In this document: positions 41-55,136 of the stretch, piece by piece
How the letters are laid out: every line of letters starts with the position of its first letter
How positions within the stretch are numbered: position 1 is the stretch's first letter
Assembly (NCBI GenBank): GCA_023802575.1
Contig: GCA_023802575.1_3947.1
DNA: 64,000 nucleotides
Strand: one strand, 5' to 3'
Source of the DNA: a phage
Translations under genes and position numbers: made by a program
Notes under the pieces: generated by a model
What the model was told of the DNA's origin: nothing
What the model saw: only the letters and a program-made list of their open reading frames with translations
Database searches by the model: none

Positions 41-412
41 TTATTTTTCAGTACTTTTTGTGTTCTTCTCAGTAATAGCTTGGAGGGCTGATACTGATTG
101 AGCCAGATTATTTACACTGTCAGAGAACTTATCAAGAGTTTTGGTAAGTTTTGCATTCTCACCCTTAACATTCTCTAACTGAACTTTCTGATTCTCCATC
201 CCTAACTGAATAAGTCTCATGTCAGACTGTAAATCACGAATAGCTGAATAGTTACTTTTGGTGTAATTATCTAGCTGCTGTAACTTTGTTGTGACAGACA
301 CTTCTTGCTTACCACTTGAAACCTGCATCGTGGTATACATCCCAATAACACTAAAAATACCAACTACAATTGCACCAATATTGTTTTTAAAAGCCTCTTC
401 TAGCCACTTCAT
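41..412 (-). CDS. Membrane-anchored coiled-coil protein (holin- or spanin-like candidate)
   Basis: 123 aa; N-terminal hydrophobic segment IGAIVVGIFSVIGMYTTM then long Q/L/N-rich helical region; last gene of the late operon. Confidence 0.5.
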   Translation of the reverse strand: MKWLEEAFKNNIGAIVVGIFSVIGMYTTMQVSSGKQEVSVTTKLQQLDNYTKSNYSAIRDLQSDMRLIQLGMENQKVQLENVKGENAKLTKTLDKFSDSVNNLAQSVSALQAITEKNTKSTEK

Positions 413-4255: not shown

Positions 4256-12274
<8,019 letters not shown>

Positions 12275-45566: not shown

Positions 45567-45856
45567 GGTGCTTCCTCTTTACGTGACACTTTGCCATTTA
45601 CAGTTATCTCATAAGAATCTAGTAAATCGCTTTTAGCTTTGACAGGACTTTTAAGAGTATCATCATAGATATTAACTTGCAATACAGGTTTTTTATACCC
45701 CATGCAACTATTCCATAAGCAAATCACTACACGACGACCTTTTATTTTACCGTGTAACCATTCCATAACATCATGGCTGTTTCTTGATGTTTCAATGAAA
45801 TCAATTTTGTTGAGTAACTTGCTTAGATTTTCACGAACTTTATTTGATAATTTCAT
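45560..45856 (-). CDS. Small accessory protein
   Basis: 98 aa; overlaps downstream gene start. Confidence 0.5.
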   Translation of the reverse strand: MKLSNKVRENLSKLLNKIDFIETSRNSHDVMEWLHGKIKGRRVVICLWNSCMGYKKPVLQVNIYDDTLKSPVKAKSDLLDSYEITVNGKVSRKEEAPC

Positions 45857-45871
45857 TTTTGAATCTCCAGT
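45857..45871 (-). promoter_or_regulatory. Truncated cassette (leader only)
   Basis: CCTAAACTGGAGATTCAAAAATG without hairpin. Confidence 0.4.
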
Positions 45872-46084
45872 TTAGGATAAAATAGTAATCGTAAAATTGT
45901 AATGACCATTAAGCTGATAAGCATAACAGTTAGAGAATACACCAACTAACCGAGGTTTTCCATAAATTTTCATGCGCTCTTTAATCTCTTTGAGAGATTT
46001 CAAACCTGTAAGGTCTTTATTGAAATAGTCATCATCTGTGAACAGGACTTGTGAGGCGGTTTTCAGTTTTTGATTAATGTTCAT
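45872..46084 (-). CDS. Small accessory protein
   Basis: 70 aa. Confidence 0.45.
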   Translation of the reverse strand: MNINQKLKTASQVLFTDDDYFNKDLTGLKSLKEIKERMKIYGKPRLVGVFSNCYAYQLNGHYNFTITILS

Positions 46085-46172
46085 TTTTGAATCTCCAGTT
46101 TAGGATTTAGTGGTAAAGCTCTTTATCTGGGGCTTAAGGTATCAGCTTTTAAGCCCCCTGTAAAGTACTTTA
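46085..46172 (-). promoter_or_regulatory. Intergenic cassette, type 2
   Basis: Hairpin GGGGCTTAAAAGCTGATACCTTAAGCCCC plus leader. Confidence 0.6.
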
Positions 46173-46431
46173 TCAGATTAAATTGCCAGTTAATGATAAG
46201 TGCATTTTATAGCCTTTTTTGGTAAAGACGTTCACTTTACCGAGTGATTTTACACCTTTAAAAAGGTTGTTTGAACTGCGTTTTAAGGTTAGTTGTTTAT
46301 CAACCTTCACGCCCCACCTTACAGCAGATTGTTTTCCGTTGTCAACCACTTTCCCGCATAACTTTTTAGCCATGATACGAGCGTCATCACGAGTTTTTAC
46401 AGTAATTACAACGTTTTTGATAATAGCCATT
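46173..46431 (-). CDS. Small basic protein
   Basis: 86 aa from ATG at 46431 (MAIIKN) with GGAGAAC RBS; Lys-rich. Confidence 0.5.
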
Positions 46432-46516
46432 TTTAAGTTCTCCAATTTAGGATTTAGTGGTAAAGTTCTTTATCTGGGGCTTACTTTATCGGACTATAAG
46501 CCCCTTGTAAAGTACT
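46432..46516 (-). promoter_or_regulatory. Intergenic cassette, type 2
   Basis: As above. Confidence 0.6.
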
Positions 46517-46900
46517 TTATTTGTTAATTTTGAAGATAGTTACGTAACCATCACTACCGATTATTTGAGACGCTCCAGCTTTTTCTACTTGATAGCCCAT
46601 ATTTTCAAGATGATAAATAGCATCATCGTAACCGTATGCGCCACCCTGATAACGTCTCTTGTCACATCTTATCAGGTTTTTTCCACGTCCTGCAAGTGCA
46701 TGGAGAATGGATTTTTCACTTGAAAGAGTACCATCTAGCATTGTAGCTGTGTAATGGTTGATTTTATTCCCGTTGATATCGTACTTGAAATTAAATGAGT
46801 GAACAACAATAACGTTACCTTTAAAATTCTCATCAAGTGACTTCTCCAGTGCGTTGCGAAAGTTGTCTTTGTTCACGAATTTAGGTGCACGGTATGCCAT
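46517..46900 (-). CDS. Accessory protein
   Basis: 127 aa; first gene of the cassette array. Confidence 0.5.
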   Translation of the reverse strand: MAYRAPKFVNKDNFRNALEKSLDENFKGNVIVVHSFNFKYDINGNKINHYTATMLDGTLSSEKSILHALAGRGKNLIRCDKRRYQGGAYGYDDAIYHLENMGYQVEKAGASQIIGSDGYVTIFKINK

Positions 46901-46975
46901 TTTTGAATCTCCAGTTTAGGACTTTGTTTAGTGGGGAAGGTCATTCCCTCCCCGTTGATGCAAATACTAGATAAC
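46901..46975 (-). promoter_or_regulatory. Intergenic cassette, type 1
   Basis: CAACGGGGAGGGAATGACCTTCCCCACTAAACAAAGTCCTAAACTGGAGATTCAAAAATG. Confidence 0.6.
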
Positions 46976-47420
46976 CACGTTCAAAGAGTCAAGAAAAATT
47001 TTAAAAATATTTTTGGCAAAACTGTAATGAAACGGGCGCACACGACTACCACAAAACAGAACACAAATCAAGAATTATTTTTCAATCCGCTACAAATTTT
47101 TCTCTTGACTTTTGGGGAGAGGGGGAGTAAGAGGGGGAGAGGGGTTGGTCTGGCTGTTTATAAAAACCTACCTGCACAATTCTAAAATGATTTTTCTTGC
47201 CCGACCTGAGCGGGGTCTGCACGTTTTGAAAATGAAAAAGCTCTTTGGAGATTACCTGCACAGTTTGAAAATGAATTTTCCCTTTGGAGTTCAAAATTCT
47301 CTCCACAGATTTCTGTCCAGACTTTTACCTGCACAATTCTGAAATGAAAAAGCCCCCCTTACCTGAAAAATTTACCAGATAAGAAAGGCTTAGTCTATTG
47401 TGTATATTCTACACAGTTTC
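46976..47420. repeat. Non-coding region with purine G-tract and four direct repeats
   Basis: GGGGAGAGGGGGAGTAAGAGGGGGAGAGGGG at about 47110-47147; four copies of CTGCAC(A/G)NTT(C/T)(T/G)(A/G)AAATGA at about 47170, 47215, 47255, 47328. Confidence 0.6.
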
Positions 47421-48206
47421 TTAGTTCTTTGCGTCTAAGAAGGTAACTTCTGGTGATGAGAAGATTGCCTTAACATTCTCATCAGTTCTCGCATAAATGT
47501 AAGCATCTGCATCACTACCGAATGTCACAGCAATACGATTATTGCTCTTTGACAGGCGGGTAACTAGAGCGTTACTTAGAGACATCTTTTCAACCGGAGG
47601 GTTACTTTGATGTATCTTACCCTTTCTACGTCTGAAGAGGGTAACTGCATTATCTGTGAACACTGCTATACCTGCAAAATATTCTGGTTCACAATAGTTC
47701 TTCCAACCTGAGCGTAACTTGTGGTACATCTCACCTTCATAGACATATAAGTAAACGTCTACGCTTTTCATTACCTGATTGATGATAACGGTGACAGCTT
47801 GATGGTCAAGTCCACCGATACCTGCACCAATCATAGGTAAACCAACTTTCTTCAACTGATTAACTTCGCAGTACCTGTTAAGTTTCTTCAAAGATGACTC
47901 TAAAGCACTGTATCTGGCATCTTTACCAGTTTTAAGCTGAGTGTAGAGGTTAGCTATACGGCCTTGTTCTAAACGTGCTACAGAGATATTACCTAGTAAA
48001 TCCTCACAGGGTTTATGTCCAATGCCACCTGCGTACAAGTAAACTTCTGTGTCAGTTTCATAGGCTTTTGGGTAAAGTTTAGAAATCTTGTCAGCAATAC
48101 CTGCACCCATTAAGTTCATACAGTTGCAACCGTGTCCAATGACATCAAACTTGCCTTTATCAAAAGCATTAAAGATATCACCATTGATGATTTTTACAAT
48201 ACCCAT
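47421..48206 (-). CDS. Macro-domain protein (ADP-ribose binding/processing) with C-terminal extension
   Basis: 261 aa; N-terminal GDIFNA...DVIGHGCNCMNLMGAGIADKI matches the macro-domain N-x(n)-G-x-G-I-A signature (TARG1/DarG-like flavour); later Gly-rich loop LPMIGAGIGGLD. Confidence 0.65.
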   Translation of the reverse strand: MGIVKIINGDIFNAFDKGKFDVIGHGCNCMNLMGAGIADKISKLYPKAYETDTEVYLYAGGIGHKPCEDLLGNISVARLEQGRIANLYTQLKTGKDARYSALESSLKKLNRYCEVNQLKKVGLPMIGAGIGGLDHQAVTVIINQVMKSVDVYLYVYEGEMYHKLRSGWKNYCEPEYFAGIAVFTDNAVTLFRRRKGKIHQSNPPVEKMSLSNALVTRLSKSNNRIAVTFGSDADAYIYARTDENVKAIFSSPEVTFLDAKN

Positions 48207-48951: not shown

Positions 48952-49221
48952 TTACTTCCTCGTTTTAAGAACTGCTAAGATTTCTTTAGAGTCTGGTAAG
49001 AACCATGTGTAGTGATTCTCTTTGATTTCTGGATGAGTGTCAACCTTTATTTTGCACTCTTTACCAACATGCTTAAGCTGCGCTGTGACACCCTGCATAA
49101 AGATATGACACATCACATTATCCATAATGGTTGGTATGAAGTCAATTCGCATATAAGTTTCTTTTGGTCGCGGTAACAGTAAGTAACCTTCTACGTAAAA
49201 AGTATCTTCATTCTCTGTCAT
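48952..49221 (-). CDS. Hypothetical protein
   Basis: 89 aa. Confidence 0.45.
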   Translation of the reverse strand: MTENEDTFYVEGYLLLPRPKETYMRIDFIPTIMDNVMCHIFMQGVTAQLKHVGKECKIKVDTHPEIKENHYTWFLPDSKEILAVLKTRK

Positions 49222-49487
49222 TGCTGTTTATTTCCTAATAAAATCATATCAATAAGGTTATTAGCTTTGATTGTGCACTGGTAAAATCCATCACGATAGA
49301 ACTCAAGGGCTGCTGCCACATCACTACCAGTATTACCTTTGATAGTAAATCTTGAATCTTCTTGAGTGTACTTATCACTCTCGCTCACTTGGGAGTTTTT
49401 GAATGTACTGTTCACTTTGTTCGTTGAACACCCTGACATAATTATCAGTAACACAAACATTATAAAACTCTGGCTTAGTTTTTTCAT
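49218..49487 (-). CDS. Lipoprotein (o-spanin-like or exclusion-type lipoprotein candidate)
   Basis: 89 aa; signal peptide with lipobox-like IIMSGC; start embedded in the 3' part of 49375..49728 in another frame. Confidence 0.45.
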   Translation of the reverse strand: MKKLSQSFIMFVLLIIMSGCSTNKVNSTFKNSQVSESDKYTQEDSRFTIKGNTGSDVAAALEFYRDGFYQCTIKANNLIDMILLGNKQQ

Positions 49488-49728
49488 ATGTTAGTACCTC
49501 TTTTGTATGCTTATTCTTAGCAAGCACATCTTTCAAATCATTTTTGTAATTGGTGCTCAGTGTAACTAACCCTTCCTGATAAGCGTCTTTAGCAACACTT
49601 ATCAGCTTCTCATTATTTAGCTCAGTTTCAGCAACTTGGTAGTCTCTGTAAGAGTATCCTCCCCAGACACCTGCCCCAACTAAGAAAACAATTATGAAAG
49701 TAGCTTGACAGAACTCTTTAAATGTCAT
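49375..49728 (-). CDS. Membrane-anchored periplasmic protein (i-spanin-like candidate)
   Basis: 117 aa; N-terminal helix FIIVFLVGAGVWGGY then charged helical region; overlaps lipoprotein gene out of frame. Confidence 0.45.
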   Translation of the reverse strand: MTFKEFCQATFIIVFLVGAGVWGGYSYRDYQVAETELNNEKLISVAKDAYQEGLVTLSTNYKNDLKDVLAKNKHTKEVLTYEKTKPEFYNVCVTDNYVRVFNEQSEQYIQKLPSERE

Positions 49729-49746
49729 TTAACAATCTCCTAAAAT

Positions 49747-49770
49747 GAAAAAGGCTCCCGAAGGAGCCTG
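49747..49770 (-). terminator. Rho-independent terminator
   Basis: GGCTCC-ttcg-GGAGCC hairpin with T5 on minus strand. Confidence 0.6.
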
Positions 49771-49780
49771 TATCTTAACC

Positions 49781-50260
49781 TTAACCGAGGACTTTAGCAA
49801 GGATATTCGCAGCCATCGAAGAAGCTTTTGCAGCAGCAACTACGCCAGCTTTGACAGTGCTATCCTTAATAGCAGATACCGTTGCAGCATCAGTAAAGAG
49901 ATAAGTGATTGTTTTGGAACCACTTGTAAAGGAAAGCATAAGAGTAGTTTCCAGATTGAAAGAGCGATACGGAGCACCTTCTTTAACGATACCTTCAGCA
50001 CCTAACTCTGAAGCCTTACCCATATCATAGATAGTCATCAGGTTTTCTTTGTGTGCAGTCGTTGAACCAACACCTTTTACGTGCTTCTTAACGTTCAACA
50101 ATGCACGATATTCACGAATGCTACCGTCAGCTTTTACATTAACAGCACGGAAAATTTTACCTTCAAAGTTACCTTGAATCATTTTACGAACTACTTCAGA
50201 TTTGTTTGCCGTATCGTCCAGTGCTACCGTAATGATATTGTTCATAAGTTCTTCTCTCAA
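49781..50260 (-). CDS. Hypothetical protein
   Basis: 159 aa. Confidence 0.5.
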   Translation of the reverse strand: MREELMNNIITVALDDTANKSEVVRKMIQGNFEGKIFRAVNVKADGSIREYRALLNVKKHVKGVGSTTAHKENLMTIYDMGKASELGAEGIVKEGAPYRSFNLETTLMLSFTSGSKTITYLFTDAATVSAIKDSTVKAGVVAAAKASSMAANILAKVLG

Positions 50261-50952
50261 TGTTTAACTAACATAGTTTTAATGTGTGGAAGGATTCTGT
50301 TTACCTTCTGAACATTATTCTCTGTATCTTCTATAAAGCATACTATATTAAAGTAAGGAAGAATGCAAGACTGAATCATCCTCACTTTCAAACTTTCTGC
50401 ACTTATAGAGTTAGTTCCAAAACCACGCATAAAAAGCAAGTAATCATGCTCTATATTGTGCCTTAAAAACATCTCAGTAGGTATTCTCTGAGATTCACCT
50501 CTTGCTGTCAAGAGTCCAACTGCTGCATGATTTGCAATTGCATCAATAATGTTGAAAACATATGTTGGTTTTGCTCTTACAGAATCAAGAAGATTAGTGT
50601 ACTGTGAGAATGACCCATCAGTCAATTCCGTTGAGCAATCTTCGTGATTAAAATTTGTAAGAACGCCATCAATATCTGCTAAGATGAGGTTACCTTTTTC
50701 TACAAGGTCTTTATTGACTATGACTAAACTATCACGCCTTACACCTATAGTTTGTCCAGTCTCTTTGTCCACAACGCTCACAATTGGTTCTGATGTATGG
50801 AACTCTTCAAGTGAACATACAACTTCTCTTGCAGTATCTTCAAAATCCCTGCACTGTTCTGGAGTCCATACACAGGAATCAAGACCTAACTCATGAGGGT
50901 GCAAGTCATAAGCATGGCACAGTACTTCATCAGACTTTCTTAATTTTTTCAT
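50257..50952 (-). CDS. HAD-family phosphatase-like protein
   Basis: 231 aa; DxDG motif in ILADIDGVLT. Confidence 0.45.
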   Translation of the reverse strand: MKKLRKSDEVLCHAYDLHPHELGLDSCVWTPEQCRDFEDTAREVVCSLEEFHTSEPIVSVVDKETGQTIGVRRDSLVIVNKDLVEKGNLILADIDGVLTNFNHEDCSTELTDGSFSQYTNLLDSVRAKPTYVFNIIDAIANHAAVGLLTARGESQRIPTEMFLRHNIEHDYLLFMRGFGTNSISAESLKVRMIQSCILPYFNIVCFIEDTENNVQKVNRILPHIKTMLVKH

Positions 50953-51478
50953 GGTTTACCTTAGAAATGTTTGTTGCAAATTCACATTGAGCAATCACTT
51001 TCATATTGTTATAGACATCTTGAGAATATTTCTTAGCTTTAGGGATTTTGTACGAATACCCAGCATTATATGATGCTAAAACTTTTTGTAAAGTCTTCTT
51101 TGACTTTGGCTGACCATGCACCTTTGTCCAAAACTCAAGTTCTTTGTGAGTTTCCTTCGCAGCATAATCAAAGTCTCTTAAGAGTTTCTTTTTAGCCACA
51201 TTAGGGCTAATTTTGTTACGCTTTACAACAGTCTTCAAGTGATTCTGGAAAATACCATAATCATGTGTCTTTTTATTCTCTACCTTCAGACCTAACTCTG
51301 ACTCTTGTAAGGCTATAGCAGCTAGAGTGATACCCCAACCTTTGCCCATGTTATTCTCACCATACTGGTAAGCTTTTAACATGTTTACTTTTTGGCTAAT
51401 TGATAGCTCTGGGCAGTCAACTGCATAAGATAAGTGTGCTGTAAACATTAAGCACAAACCTAGAATCAATTCCTTCAT
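50930..51478 (-). CDS. Lytic transglycosylase (SLT domain) with signal peptide
   Basis: 182 aa; signal-like MKELILGLCLMFTAHLSYA; SLT catalytic context AIALQESELG and YGIFQ. Confidence 0.6.
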   Translation of the reverse strand: MKELILGLCLMFTAHLSYAVDCPELSISQKVNMLKAYQYGENNMGKGWGITLAAIALQESELGLKVENKKTHDYGIFQNHLKTVVKRNKISPNVAKKKLLRDFDYAAKETHKELEFWTKVHGQPKSKKTLQKVLASYNAGYSYKIPKAKKYSQDVYNNMKVIAQCEFATNISKVNHEKIKKV

Positions 51479-51540
51479 TGGTTCTCCTGTTTAGTTTATC
51501 GTGACAACAATTATACAGCACTCTGCACAAAATACAAATA

Positions 51541-51566
51541 AAAAAGGCCGCCGAAGCAGCCTTTTA
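51541..51566 (-). terminator. Rho-independent terminator
   Basis: Minus-strand hairpin GGCTGC-ttcg-GCGGCC followed by T run. Confidence 0.5.
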
Positions 51567-51578
51567 AGAAATTACTTA

Positions 51579-52688
51579 TTAGATTTCACGTTTACGTTGA
51601 GAGATGAGTTCACCAGCAGTGCCAACGATAACATGTAGAGCTTCAGTCTTGCCATCCCATGCTTTCAGAACATTACGCTGGCTATCAACGATAGCTGCAA
51701 CTTCATAACGTGATGAACGCATTTTCATATCATTGTAATCAGTTGGAACAGATACAACATCTCGTGGGTGGACACGAACTTTCAGGATTGTATCACCTGA
51801 GAAGCTACGAACATAATCCCAAGCACCAACATGAAGACCTTGAGAGCAAGTCACGTTACGGTTATTATCAACCATCCAACGTGGCATCTCTACAATGTTA
51901 CCCAAATCGTTAGGAACTTTGTAGGTGTGGGAGTCAACCAGCTTACCTTCACGAGTAGAGACTTTCTTCCAACCAATGATGTAACCTTCTTCATCAATTT
52001 CAACATCAAGGTGAGATACAAATCCCCAAAGTTGTTCTACAGAATCTTTAGATGGGTTTTCCATCAGTTTTTCGAAGAACATTACAAGTCGTTCAAAACC
52101 TTTATCACCAGTTTTCATCATGTGAAGAATACGGTCAACCAGAGTAGAACGCATCTCAACAGCACCGTAGAATAGCTTGTCGCCTTTGATTGTGATAGCA
52201 CCCTGAGTGAAGTTTTCGATAGACTTACGAATGTTCATCAGTTCAAATGCTTTCTTGAACTCACCTTTCACAACATGAACTACAATCTCTTGATAGTTCG
52301 GATGAGTAGACTCAACAATTTCAGATTCTGAACCATAAGTCATAATTACAGAATCACCAGTAATCATGTACTCAATCTTGTCATCTTTCTGCATAGCTTC
52401 GTGCAGTTTATTTACTGGAGCTTTCTGTACAGTGTCTTTAACGACCTTTTCAACTGGTTTGCCAGCTTTCTTTTTAAAGGTCTTAGCAACTTGCTTCAAA
52501 GTCTTCGTAGCTGGTGTAGAAGTTGCCTTTTTATTCCCTTTTAGGGTTGCTTCATGACGCTCTACAGCACGACCAACTGAACGGGTTGAGGTGTTAAATT
52601 TCTGTGCAATAGCTGTTTTGGTCAGCTTACCTTCTTTTACCAGTTTGTAAATTTCTGCGTCAATCTGTGCTTTAGTTTTAGTAGTCAT
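51579..52688 (-). CDS. rIIB: rIIB-like protein
   Basis: 369 aa; blocks VDRILHMMKTGDKGFERLVMFFEKLMENPSKDS, CSQGLHVGAWDYVRSF and VHPRDVVSVPTDYNDMKMR match my recollection of T4 rIIB; immediately downstream of rIIA-like gene. Confidence 0.7.
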   Translation of the reverse strand: MTTKTKAQIDAEIYKLVKEGKLTKTAIAQKFNTSTRSVGRAVERHEATLKGNKKATSTPATKTLKQVAKTFKKKAGKPVEKVVKDTVQKAPVNKLHEAMQKDDKIEYMITGDSVIMTYGSESEIVESTHPNYQEIVVHVVKGEFKKAFELMNIRKSIENFTQGAITIKGDKLFYGAVEMRSTLVDRILHMMKTGDKGFERLVMFFEKLMENPSKDSVEQLWGFVSHLDVEIDEEGYIIGWKKVSTREGKLVDSHTYKVPNDLGNIVEMPRWMVDNNRNVTCSQGLHVGAWDYVRSFSGDTILKVRVHPRDVVSVPTDYNDMKMRSSRYEVAAIVDSQRNVLKAWDGKTEALHVIVGTAGELISQRKREI

Positions 52689-52769: not shown

Positions 52770-55136
52770 TTAATCGTAAATTGTTGTACCTTCTGGAACA
52801 CACTTCACATCAAAGCCTAAGAACTTACTCACTTCAATAGGTGACACTTTATTCCAATCTAAATGAGAAAGCAAGAAGTTTTCTTGTTTTCTTTTTGAAA
52901 GGTAGTTTGTCACCTTAATGACCATGCGGTCACCAGCTTTCTTAATTTTCTTGTACAGCTTTGTATCATTGTCAAGGCATTCTTTCAAAGTTTGCAATCT
53001 ACTAACAGTGTAAGTGTATGCAAACGGTGCAGCAACGTATTGGATTTTACCGAACATTGCCTCTACAGCCTCTTCATTACCTTCTAGGAAGATAGTTTTG
53101 TTTGTATCCCGTGAATAGCAATAACCACGAGAAATCTTCCTATTATTGAATGTAAAGTTTCTGGCAATAATCCAGCTACTTGTAAGGTCAAGAACACCAT
53201 TCATGTAGATGCGTGTCATATACCTGTTATGATTAATCCAATGAACATCAGTTAAGCTGTCGTTCAAGAGCTTCTCATCTACTTCAATCCAGTCTTCTGG
53301 TATCTTTTTCCAATTTGCTTTTCGGAAAACATAAACTGTCTTTCCAATAACATTAGCAACTGACTTAGCTACATCTTCTGGAGATGAGCAAAAACATCTA
53401 CCATCAACTGTGTCACCAACTGCCTTAATATAAAGCTGAGGTTCTTCAATTGTGTCTAAGTCTTCTGACACCTCTTTGTATGAAGCTACAGATTCTGCTG
53501 GAACAGCTTTCCATAGTTTTACAACACCTCTCACAGCCTCTTTACGCTGATAATGATGCTCCTTATCAGACATTTTCACAATCTTTAACAAGCTTTTATC
53601 AAGTTTGTGTAGATTGATTAAATCATCTAACTCTTTTTCAGTCGAGAATACAAACACAATACCATTGTATCTGTGGAACAGGCCTGACTCGTTAGCGTAG
53701 TCTCGACATGCACCACGCAAGATTTGATTTCGTCCTACAGTCTTCTCAGTGCCATTTTTATTGCGACGGTCATTAATCACGAACAAAAACTGTTCAATTT
53801 GGCTTTTACGCATTGCACCAAAGATATTGAACATACTTGCCTCTTGAGTGTAGGAAAGTGCTGTTGCACGAATCTTACTCTCTAAAGAGTTGAACTTGAC
53901 ATAAGCAACTGGGTCATAAAGGTAATCTACTTTAGGGATGTTGTTTCCGTTCCTATCAACCTTAATATTACCTTTACCGTCACGCTCATAAATGACTGAG
54001 CCGTCTTCTGCGTAGATAATCCCGCGACGAATGTTTAGCAACTCTTCTTCCAGAGAATCAAGCTTAACGCCTCCCCACTCTAGCTTTGGACACACAGCAT
54101 TAAACATTTCTCGTGAGTTCAAACGCAACTCAGCATAAGCCTGTGCAGCATCCATGAGTGTGGGCTGATTGTTAATCTTTTTGATAACATCCTTTGTAAT
54201 GGCTTCAGTTATCTTTTTAGTAGCCTCAATGATAACATTTTTTGTCGTGTCATTCATCTGCAATGCTTCACGAGAAGCTGCAATAGCAACTGAACCAATA
54301 GGCATGTAGATGTTTACAAGGTCTACGCTCCTACGGAAAAACTCTGGCAATACTTTGAAGAAATCATCGCCAAGTAATGCTTCCATATTAACAGGGTAGG
54401 CAATGTTACCCATCACCACATTAAACTCTGTCCTGTTATCACTAGAACGCCAGCTGTGCTTATGAATCATGGCATCATAAACACCTTCTTCACGGGCAAT
54501 GACGTTCATATCTGCTAATACATCGTTGTACTCAATATTACTTTCTGGTTTTACAGTGAAGTATGAGTACACATTCCCAGCTTCTTCAAAGAACTTTGAG
54601 ATACGGTGGTCAGCAACTGCCACACGTACAGCTAAACCATTAGGTTCTTTTGTTGGGTTAGTTGTCAGCTTAGTTACTTGAGGGATACCATTCTCAAGAT
54701 AAACAGAGTACTTATTAACAACACCGTCAACATAACTAGATACTGTGAATGACTGAGCAATTGCAAATGGTGACTTTGAGCCGATACCCATTGCACCAAT
54801 GTAGTCATTAGAGTCGTTCTTCGTAGAAGCTCCATAGTTTAGGTACAGACTCATAACTTTATCATGAGTCAATCCAGTTCCAAAATCACGAACTTCGAAG
54901 TAAGGCTCAAAACGAGTAGGTAAATGCACATGGAATGGGATGTTCTCTTTTCCAGCTTCTTTCTGAGCATCCACTGCGTTACATGACAGTTCACGAATCA
55001 CTGCCCTTTCTTTAAAGGTGTATACACCAGAACTCAAAAGGCTGAACATCTCAGGTGTCATTGTAATCTGTGCTTGAGACGTCTCTAAAGAAGTTGAACT
55101 CTTAATCACTTCTGCGTGGTCATTTACCATGCGCAT
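52770..55136 (-). CDS. rIIA: rIIA-like protein with N-terminal GHKL-type ATPase domain
   Basis: 788 aa; N-box-like ELSCNAVDA and G-box-like DFGTGL...GAMGIGSKS; upstream partner of rIIB-like gene. Confidence 0.65.
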   Translation of the reverse strand: MRMVNDHAEVIKSSTSLETSQAQITMTPEMFSLLSSGVYTFKERAVIRELSCNAVDAQKEAGKENIPFHVHLPTRFEPYFEVRDFGTGLTHDKVMSLYLNYGASTKNDSNDYIGAMGIGSKSPFAIAQSFTVSSYVDGVVNKYSVYLENGIPQVTKLTTNPTKEPNGLAVRVAVADHRISKFFEEAGNVYSYFTVKPESNIEYNDVLADMNVIAREEGVYDAMIHKHSWRSSDNRTEFNVVMGNIAYPVNMEALLGDDFFKVLPEFFRRSVDLVNIYMPIGSVAIAASREALQMNDTTKNVIIEATKKITEAITKDVIKKINNQPTLMDAAQAYAELRLNSREMFNAVCPKLEWGGVKLDSLEEELLNIRRGIIYAEDGSVIYERDGKGNIKVDRNGNNIPKVDYLYDPVAYVKFNSLESKIRATALSYTQEASMFNIFGAMRKSQIEQFLFVINDRRNKNGTEKTVGRNQILRGACRDYANESGLFHRYNGIVFVFSTEKELDDLINLHKLDKSLLKIVKMSDKEHHYQRKEAVRGVVKLWKAVPAESVASYKEVSEDLDTIEEPQLYIKAVGDTVDGRCFCSSPEDVAKSVANVIGKTVYVFRKANWKKIPEDWIEVDEKLLNDSLTDVHWINHNRYMTRIYMNGVLDLTSSWIIARNFTFNNRKISRGYCYSRDTNKTIFLEGNEEAVEAMFGKIQYVAAPFAYTYTVSRLQTLKECLDNDTKLYKKIKKAGDRMVIKVTNYLSKRKQENFLLSHLDWNKVSPIEVSKFLGFDVKCVPEGTTIYD

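Follow-up and report, generated by a model that had tools for sequence, protein, structure and literature searches.

A 64,000-nt stretch of phage DNA (GenBank assembly GCA_023802575.1, contig GCA_023802575.1_3947.1; hereafter the window) carries an overlapping gene pair for a membrane-anchored protein and a lipoprotein, and upstream of it a gene for a secreted protein similar to the SLT-type lytic transglycosylases of glycoside hydrolase family 23 (GH23). The pair is assigned by sequence as the two-component spanin of this phage, belonging to the JH2/Felix O1 family, and its genes are arranged in the overlapped architecture. The SLT-like protein is recognized as a homologue, or orthologue, of T4 Vs.1. 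It is highly probable that these are two unrelated things, a JH2-type overlapped spanin and an unlinked Vs.1-orthologous GH23 enzyme. An earlier reading of the same DNA (the original prediction) had joined them into a second lysis-related cluster. The three open reading frames (ORFs) it proposed are all present on the minus strand, with the following positions and features, where aa stands for amino acids and TM for transmembrane:

49375–49728, minus strand: i-spanin, 117 aa, with an N-terminal TM anchor, a predicted helical periplasmic domain and Cys92 in an F-x-N-x-C motif
49218–49487, minus strand: o-spanin lipoprotein precursor, 89 aa, in the +1 frame, with lipobox IMSG before C20, Ser at +2 and Cys71
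50930–51478, minus strand: secreted GH23/SLT-type lytic transglycosylase-like protein, 182 aa, T4 Vs.1 homologue

In a megablast search with window positions 49000–51700 as the query, 256 phage records span the whole segment. The top match is Escherichia virus TH10 (99.3% identity), followed by wV8-type Felixounavirus genomes (96–97%). On this similarity the window is assigned to a Felixounavirus, a Felix O1-like myophage genome.

The starts of the two spanin genes are 241 nt apart, which places the lipoprotein gene in the +1 frame relative to its partner. The two ORFs have 113 nt in common. Because the lipoprotein gene extends 157 nt beyond the i-spanin stop, the architecture is overlapped, as in P2 LysB/LysC, and not embedded, as in lambda Rz/Rz1. 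The out-of-frame overlap was thus correctly described in the original prediction, while its term "embedded" does not apply.

The i-spanin has a single hydrophobic segment at about residues 6–24 (Kyte-Doolittle maximum), with Lys4 on its N-terminal side, and the remainder of the protein is hydrophilic, in agreement with the N-terminal anchor proposed earlier. It contains two cysteines, Cys7 inside the TM segment and Cys92, the latter invariant in an alignment of Felixounavirus and Mooglevirus sequences. The protein matches phrog_1152, "Rz-like spanin" (2e-41). By tblastn it is present in 402 phage records, Kuravirus included, with identities of 95–97% to most Felixounavirus copies and about 30–35% to Kuravirus (phiEco32-like) copies. 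The 3' end of the gene (49375–49383) shows a small variation. The protein ends in ...KLPSERE here and in ...KLPSK in all eight aligned homologues, which are mostly 115 aa long; the tblastn search shows that the 117-aa form, too, is common in Felixounavirus records.

The o-spanin starts with a standard lipoprotein signal, MKKLSQSFIMFVLLIIMSG followed by C20-S-T, with the lipobox I-M-S-G ahead of C20, so that the lipoprotein call of the original prediction is borne out. Ser at position +2 of the mature lipoprotein predicts the outer membrane under the established Lol sorting rule. Since Ser and not Asp is found at +2, the o-spanin is predicted to be sorted there. The mature part is 70 aa long with one cysteine, Cys71. 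There is no proline among the 89 residues; the earlier remark was that the lipoprotein is not proline-rich. An AGAGG ribosome-binding site lies 9 nt 5' of the start codon, within the i-spanin frame. When all six frames and every start codon of the window were scanned, this was the sole convincing lipobox ORF. By tblastn, each of the 361 matching phage records has the frame intact for 80% or more of its length, and identity to the copy of phage JH2 is 95.5%. All full-length homologues retain the lipobox, and Cys71 is invariant in Felixounavirus and Mooglevirus. In the PHROG families the best match is phrog_4180 of unknown function (1.7e-50), with a weak match to phrog_456, "Rz-like spanin" (7.9e-5). 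A HMMER search of 1.8 billion proteins returned four representatives and no link to other o-spanin families. This scarcity probably reflects that overlapping o-spanin genes are rarely called. The o-spanin is very often called in a shortened form, from Met17 (73 aa) or from a later start (68 aa), and the lipoprotein signal is lost; one cluster of such shortened o-spanins (among P0026–P0039) has 303 member sequences.

Membership in a catalogued family adds to the topology, and the spanin reading in the original prediction is supported. The pair is annotated as i- and o-spanin in relatives such as JLBYU32 and fjerdesal and in many other GenBank entries. In SpaninDB, Kongari et al. (2018) placed Felix01, wV8, FO1a, UAB_phi87, Moogle and JH2 in a "JH2" i-spanin family (PMC6139136). 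The same family includes phiEco32-type phages (PMC6139136), in agreement with our Kuravirus tblastn matches. A "JH2" o-spanin family is catalogued too, and Felix01, FO1a and UAB_phi87 are filed under overlapped architecture (PMC6139136). With these families on record and an o-spanin 95.5% identical to that of JH2, the spanin pair is already known and is an ordinary conserved trait of the phage group. Compared with the pairs of Felix01, wV8, JH2, Moogle and UAB_phi87, the window has the same genes, the same overlapped architecture and the same position downstream of rIIB; the only difference is trivial, the i-spanin terminus ...PSERE being two residues longer than the usual ...PSK.

The pairing is retained at large distances. 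Erwinia phage Roscha1 (Kolesnikvirus) has the same arrangement at about 30–35% identity, with the gene for an anchored protein of 118 aa overlapping a lipoprotein ORF of 91 aa, and this pair keeps the lipobox, the single periplasmic cysteine of each partner and the C-terminal motifs. The Roscha1 o-spanin ORF (L010, 7243–7518) is unannotated, and its i-spanin partner is labelled "hypothetical protein". The lipoprotein is also paired with an anchored partner in Kuravirus-type phages. Invariant C-terminal segments of the two proteins are ...FYNVCVTDNYVRVFNE and ...LEFYRDGFYQC...NNLIDMILLG. Each partner has a periplasmic cysteine, C92 in the i-spanin and C71 in the o-spanin, and this holds for the Kolesnikvirus homologues as well; these residues could form homotypic intermolecular disulfides.

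Comparison with the well-studied spanins shows likeness in organization. Lambda Rz/Rz1 and P2 LysB/LysC, like the pair in the window, combine a type II inner-membrane protein with an outer-membrane lipoprotein whose gene shares DNA with the first in another frame, and P2 also shares the overlapped architecture. However, there is no sequence similarity to the lambda or P2 proteins, and the window pair lies outside any holin-endolysin cassette. The lambda genes are fully embedded, and Rz1 is a 40-aa protein with a penta-proline, whereas the window o-spanin has a 70-aa mature part with no proline and is not a short, proline-rich mature peptide of the Rz1 type. T4 PseT.3/PseT.2 shares several traits with the window pair. 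The i-spanin is 117 aa in both phages, both o-spanins lack a proline-rich region and the mature domain of each is probably folded. In both phages, too, the spanin genes stand in an early-gene region far from the holin and endolysin genes, and a gene for a PseT-type phosphatase is nearby. They differ in that the T4 genes are "separated" while those of the window overlap, and in periplasmic cysteines, of which PseT.3 has none, PseT.2 two and the window proteins one each. Sequence kinship with the T4 spanins was considered and rejected, since BLASTP against PseT.3 and PseT.2 gave nothing beyond the signal peptide; the organization alone is alike. The o-spanin family of T4 is devoid of a proline-rich region, has predicted secondary structure and complements lambda Rz/Rz1 (PMC6139136), and for this reason the missing proline does not disqualify the window protein as an o-spanin.

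The pair is the only spanin candidate found in the window. No second spanin candidate was found in the six-frame lipobox scan of the 64-kb window. Two further lysis-related genes are present:

33779–34243, plus strand: GH24 endolysin, 154 aa, with no signal or anchor, phrog_7 endolysin (1.4e-57)
41–412, minus strand: putative holin, 123 aa, with a single N-terminal TM segment and a large C-terminal domain, phrog_4038 of unknown function

The endolysin, located at 33779 as in the original prediction, is the equivalent of Felix O1 gp35 (PMC3185647) and is the muralytic enzyme after which the spanins are expected to act. The label "holin" or "putative holin" for region 41–412 is found in several relatives, as annotation only, and the single-TM topology of the protein is like that of T4 holin T. 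The lysis genes do not form a contiguous cassette: the endolysin is encoded at 33.8 kb, on the strand opposite to that of the spanins at 49.2–49.7 kb, and the putative holin lies at 0.04–0.4 kb. Holin-lysin cassettes are absent in Felix O1, according to its genome paper (PMC3185647). The window therefore has a single spanin locus, with its lysis genes dispersed in the manner of T4, and a "second" lysis cluster is not supported.

The SLT-like protein has a predicted signal peptide of residues 1–19, with ...LSYA ahead of VD. Its N-terminus, MKELILGLCLMFTAHLSYA followed by VD, has an n-h-c layout and a small-x-small cleavage site of the Sec type, unlike a signal-arrest-release (SAR) anchor. The GH23 motifs are E59-S60, G75-I-F-Q78 and S136-Y137-N138-A-G140. 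In an alignment of 12 homologues with identities down to 30%, residues E59, S60, G75, Q78, Y137, N138, G140 and Y151 are kept; the E-S, G..Q and Y-N-x-G motifs and the signal peptides are common to Ounavirinae, T4 and Kuttervirus homologues. Retention of the E-S, G-L-M-Q-like and A-Y-N-x-G signatures points to the family-1 type of lytic transglycosylase. In a fold comparison the protein showed the lysozyme-like GH23 fold, while a sequence search of the Protein Data Bank gave no match at E <= 1. Fold and motifs cannot tell a lytic transglycosylase from a g-type lysozyme-like hydrolase. The Pfam family SLT (PF01464) has precomputed matches in four distant homologues. Cys22 and Cys165 are conserved within Ounavirinae, and their presence fits a periplasmic disulfide. 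An SLT-type protein with its own signal peptide, as originally proposed, is thus supported by these features, and together with the GH24 endolysin the window encodes two muralytic folds, also as proposed.

Homologues of the SLT-like protein occur in 2,125 phage records by tblastn, among them annotated vs.1 genes of RB69, AR1, 44RR2.8t, CC31 and RB43, and also Kuttervirus phages. Like the spanin pair, the enzyme is an ordinary conserved trait of this phage group. Identity to T4 Vs.1 is 32% over residues 2–155 (BLASTP, E 3e-16). The two proteins are of nearly the same length (181 aa in T4 and 182 aa in the window) and share a signal peptide and the E-S, G-x-F-Q and Y-N-x-G motifs. T4 Vs.1, however, lacks the C22/C165 pair of the Ounavirinae copies, and the neighboring genes differ, being regB and vs in T4 and rIIB and the HAD phosphatase gene in the window. 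EtgA and the IagB/VirB1 type, which are small "specialised" transglycosylases of secretion systems with signal peptides, and Escherichia coli MltE are 13–20% identical to the SLT-like protein; unlike the EtgA, IagB and VirB1 types, it is phage-encoded, with no secretion-apparatus context and no known partner. Nolan et al. (2006) reported a marginal SLT similarity of T4 Vs.1 and, with the domain match as the only ground, suggested "some role in cell lysis" (PMC1524935). Literature searches on what Vs.1, or the SLT protein of Felix O1, might do gave nothing beyond this remark. The SLT protein is absent from the Felix O1 virion proteins listed by mass spectrometry (PMC3185647).

Every gene between about 46.5 and 55 kb is on the minus strand. 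The order of transcription is rIIA, rIIB, a hairpin, a promoter-like site, the SLT-like gene, the HAD phosphatase gene, the 159-aa ORF, a second hairpin, the spanin pair and then small genes. The features around the SLT-like and spanin genes are:

52770–55136, minus strand: rIIA, ORF
51579–52688, minus strand: rIIB, phrog_609 (1.8e-89)
51542–51565, minus strand: terminator-like hairpin 3' of rIIB, 5' boundary of the SLT-phosphatase-159-aa block, annotated as a terminator in phage AYO145A
51510–51537, minus strand: candidate for a sigma-70-like promoter, TTGTAT-N16-TATAAT, ahead of the SLT gene, read directly in the sequence
50257–50952, minus strand: HAD-type phosphatase, 231 aa, with D-I-D-G-V-L-T, phrog_3970 (4.4e-134)
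49781–50260, minus strand: ORF without known function, 159 aa with the TTG start or 154 aa with the ATG at 50245, phrog_2267 (4.2e-50)
49752–49769, minus strand: terminator-like hairpin AGGCTCC-TTCG-GGAGCCT with a T run, separating the 159-aa ORF from the start of the i-spanin gene

The SLT gene lies 1.2 kb from the spanin pair on the same strand, and between them lie the phosphatase gene, the 159-aa ORF and the hairpin at 49752–49769, whose counterpart in AYO145A is annotated as a rho-independent terminator. None of these three appears in the original prediction. The SLT gene would head its own block, composed of the SLT, phosphatase and 159-aa genes and bounded by the two terminator-like hairpins. 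The promoter candidate in front of it scored under the threshold of a consensus scan; the equivalent site in AYO145A, with three mismatches, is an annotated promoter. No T4-type late promoter (TATAAATA) was found upstream of the i-spanin when the sequence was inspected by eye. The 3' end of the SLT gene shares 23 nt with the 5' end of the phosphatase gene. This pairing recurs, overlapping in L006 (a 37%-identical metagenomic relative) and adjacent in Roscha1.

Elsewhere the SLT and spanin genes part company. In L006 the spanin pair was not found within 5 kb of the SLT homologue. In T4, vs.1 is at 62 kb and pseT.3/pseT.2 at 135 kb, a separation of 73 kb. The neighbors of the Kuttervirus homologue are unrelated, with no spanin linkage, and in the metagenomic phage contig L007 the SLT homologue is followed by an unrelated lipoprotein gene, with an ORF resembling a unimolecular spanin elsewhere. 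Because two cytoplasmic-type genes and a hairpin intervene, and because the homologues are unlinked in T4 and L006, the evidence says that there is no module: the SLT gene is in a predicted transcription unit different from that of the spanins, and the relation is one of adjacency and not of a cassette. The word "cluster" in the original prediction is not upheld.

Several points weigh against the reading of two unrelated systems. The spanin assignment is drawn from topology, gene arrangement and family membership, and the literature searched contains no report of lambda Rz/Rz1 complementation or any other experiment for the JH2 spanin family. The o-spanin is without proline, and outside the signal peptide no similarity to either lambda Rz1 or T4 PseT.2 was detected. 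A helical or coiled-coil periplasmic domain of the i-spanin is weakly supported, the AlphaFold2 monomer being all-helical with low confidence (predicted local distance difference test score, pLDDT, of 49). The match of the SLT-like protein to PF01464 (19.4 bits, E 7.9e-4) is under the gathering threshold of 21.3, and we infer its enzymatic activity, signal-peptide cleavage and time of expression from sequence features. The order rIIB, SLT, phosphatase and, further on, spanins is kept in Felixounavirus and Kolesnikvirus, which is also compatible with a loose functional link between SLT gene and spanins within Ounavirinae. In a crude Felix O1 reverse transcription PCR experiment, ORF 3 (SLT), ORF 14 (i-spanin) and ORF 35 (lysin) share the "25 min" class, so that co-expression of the SLT gene with lysis genes is possible. 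The shared time class and the kept order favor one accessory lysis module of the SLT/Vs.1-like enzyme and the spanins, in which the transglycosylase would pre-digest or loosen murein, making lysis or the action of the spanins faster or independent of the holin-endolysin route. So do the closeness of two envelope-directed products on one strand, the invariance of the SLT catalytic motifs and the domain-match suggestion of Nolan et al. (PMC1524935). We consider such a module quite unlikely, in view of the intervening hairpin and two cytoplasmic genes, the overlap of the SLT gene with the phosphatase gene start and with no spanin gene, and the unlinked homologues in T4 and L006. The genetics of T4 points the same way. 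T4 e mutants carry vs.1 and yet do not lyse, which argues that a Vs.1-type enzyme is not a sufficient endolysin.

The same argument bears on the SLT-like protein as a secreted or SAR-type endolysin, true or redundant, activated by membrane depolarization. An N-terminal hydrophobic segment joined to a muralytic fold and the annotation "putative lysin" in some relatives would suit this. However, the N-terminus has the classic n-h-c layout with an A-x-A-type site, S-Y-A before V, and not the Gly/Ala-rich, weakly hydrophobic segment of a SAR protein; the window has a GH24 endolysin of the conventional kind; in T4, Vs.1 is no substitute for gene e; and the SLT gene stands behind a sigma-70-like promoter beside rIIB, among genes with early T4 counterparts. 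An endolysin of this kind is very improbable. Least credible of all is a lipoprotein of the superinfection-exclusion or receptor-masking type (T5 Llp, Cor) whose overlap with the anchored protein is incidental; the original prediction had named an exclusion factor as an alternative. Its lack of proline and of similarity to Rz1 or PseT.2, the location in the early-region arm away from the endolysin, and a very highly conserved mature domain that looks folded could be taken in its favor. Against it, the overlapping anchored partner is always present, to about 30% identity in Kolesnikvirus and also in Kuravirus-type phages; both partners have the one invariant periplasmic cysteine that is a spanin hallmark; and the window has no other spanin candidate. 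The T4 spanins, moreover, are also early-region genes without a proline-rich region (PMC6139136).

For the preferred reading, a JH2-type spanin beside an unlinked Vs.1-like enzyme, the events at lysis can be drawn by analogy with the lambda and T4 paradigms. The i-spanin would be held in the inner membrane by its N-terminal anchor, while the o-spanin would be lipidated at Cys20 and sorted to the outer membrane. Across the murein mesh, their periplasmic domains would bind to one another, and each protein may form covalent homodimers through its single conserved periplasmic cysteine (C92 or C71). Once the holin-released GH24 endolysin (33779–34243) destroys the murein, the spanin complexes would be freed to collapse and would fuse inner and outer membranes, completing lysis. 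The SLT-like enzyme would most likely be exported by the Sec system and cut the glycan strands of murein in the periplasm while the infected cell is still alive, as an accessory murein-remodelling activity rather than as an endolysin.

The role of the Vs.1 family, a secreted enzyme of several virulent myophage groups, is the one wider question here, and it is family-wide and not specific to this locus. The family spans T4-like, Vi1-like and Felix O1-like myophages in about 2,100 phage records. One idea, which we hold to be unlikely, is that Vs.1 proteins are general pre-lysis "murein conditioners" that open or thin the sacculus while the cell lives. If so, such an enzyme might help spanin complexes to thread through murein, speed lysis in the highly cross-linked walls of stationary phase, or alter lysis timing or lysis inhibition. 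The window shows only that the SLT-like enzyme is intact, conserved and provided with an export signal, and is silent on its role.

The two genes between the SLT gene and the spanins are of cytoplasmic type. The 159-aa ORF has no membrane segment, no Pfam or NCBIfam match and no recognizable lysis function. NCBIfam searches with all five proteins gave only noise. The HAD-type protein is labelled "polynucleotide kinase" in relatives and lacks a P-loop; by BLASTP it aligns with T4 PseT only around the phosphatase DxDGT motif, and HAD_PNKP is found at the equivalent position in L006 and Roscha1. Three annotations of relatives follow from this analysis: the o-spanin is to be called from Met1, what is called "lysin" there is the SLT-like protein, a homologue of T4 Vs.1 rather than the endolysin, and the "polynucleotide kinase" is a phosphatase domain only.

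The early arm of the genome contains counterparts of several T4 early-region genes, namely rIIA, rIIB, vs.1, the phosphatase half of pseT, a tk.4-like Macro protein and the spanins. The Macro protein is the following:

47421–48206, minus strand: Macro-domain protein, 261 aa, PF01661 (3.1e-07), "putative phosphatase" in relatives

In T4, the macro/A1pp-type phosphatase gene tk.4 is two genes from vs.1. In L007 (6001–6878), the distant SLT/Vs.1 homologue (P0018) has a longer N-terminal region, with the hydrophobic segment well inside the protein, and the start of a 100-aa lipoprotein gene overlaps its stop. Also in L007, a 131-aa ORF at 11776–12171 has a lipobox and a C-terminal hydrophobic segment and resembles a unimolecular spanin.

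A gap of about 520 nt (46900–47420) holds no plausible minus-strand gene. Three copies of a 34-nt repeat (CTGCACGTTTTGAAAATGAAAAAGCTCTTTGGAG) are found at 47217–47362, with spacings of 39 and 73 nt. The gap might be a regulatory region or encode a small RNA. A further repeated element of 40–70 nt (families D2/D3) occurs six to eight times in the search of both strands over 40896–46959, in gaps between genes where small minus-strand genes lie. In minus-strand orientation it consists of a GC hairpin (GGGGAGGGAATGACCTTCCCC) followed by ACTAAA..AGTCCTAAACTGGAGATTC(A/T)AAAATG and ends where a gene starts; in appearance it is a repeated cassette of terminator, leader and ribosome-binding site.

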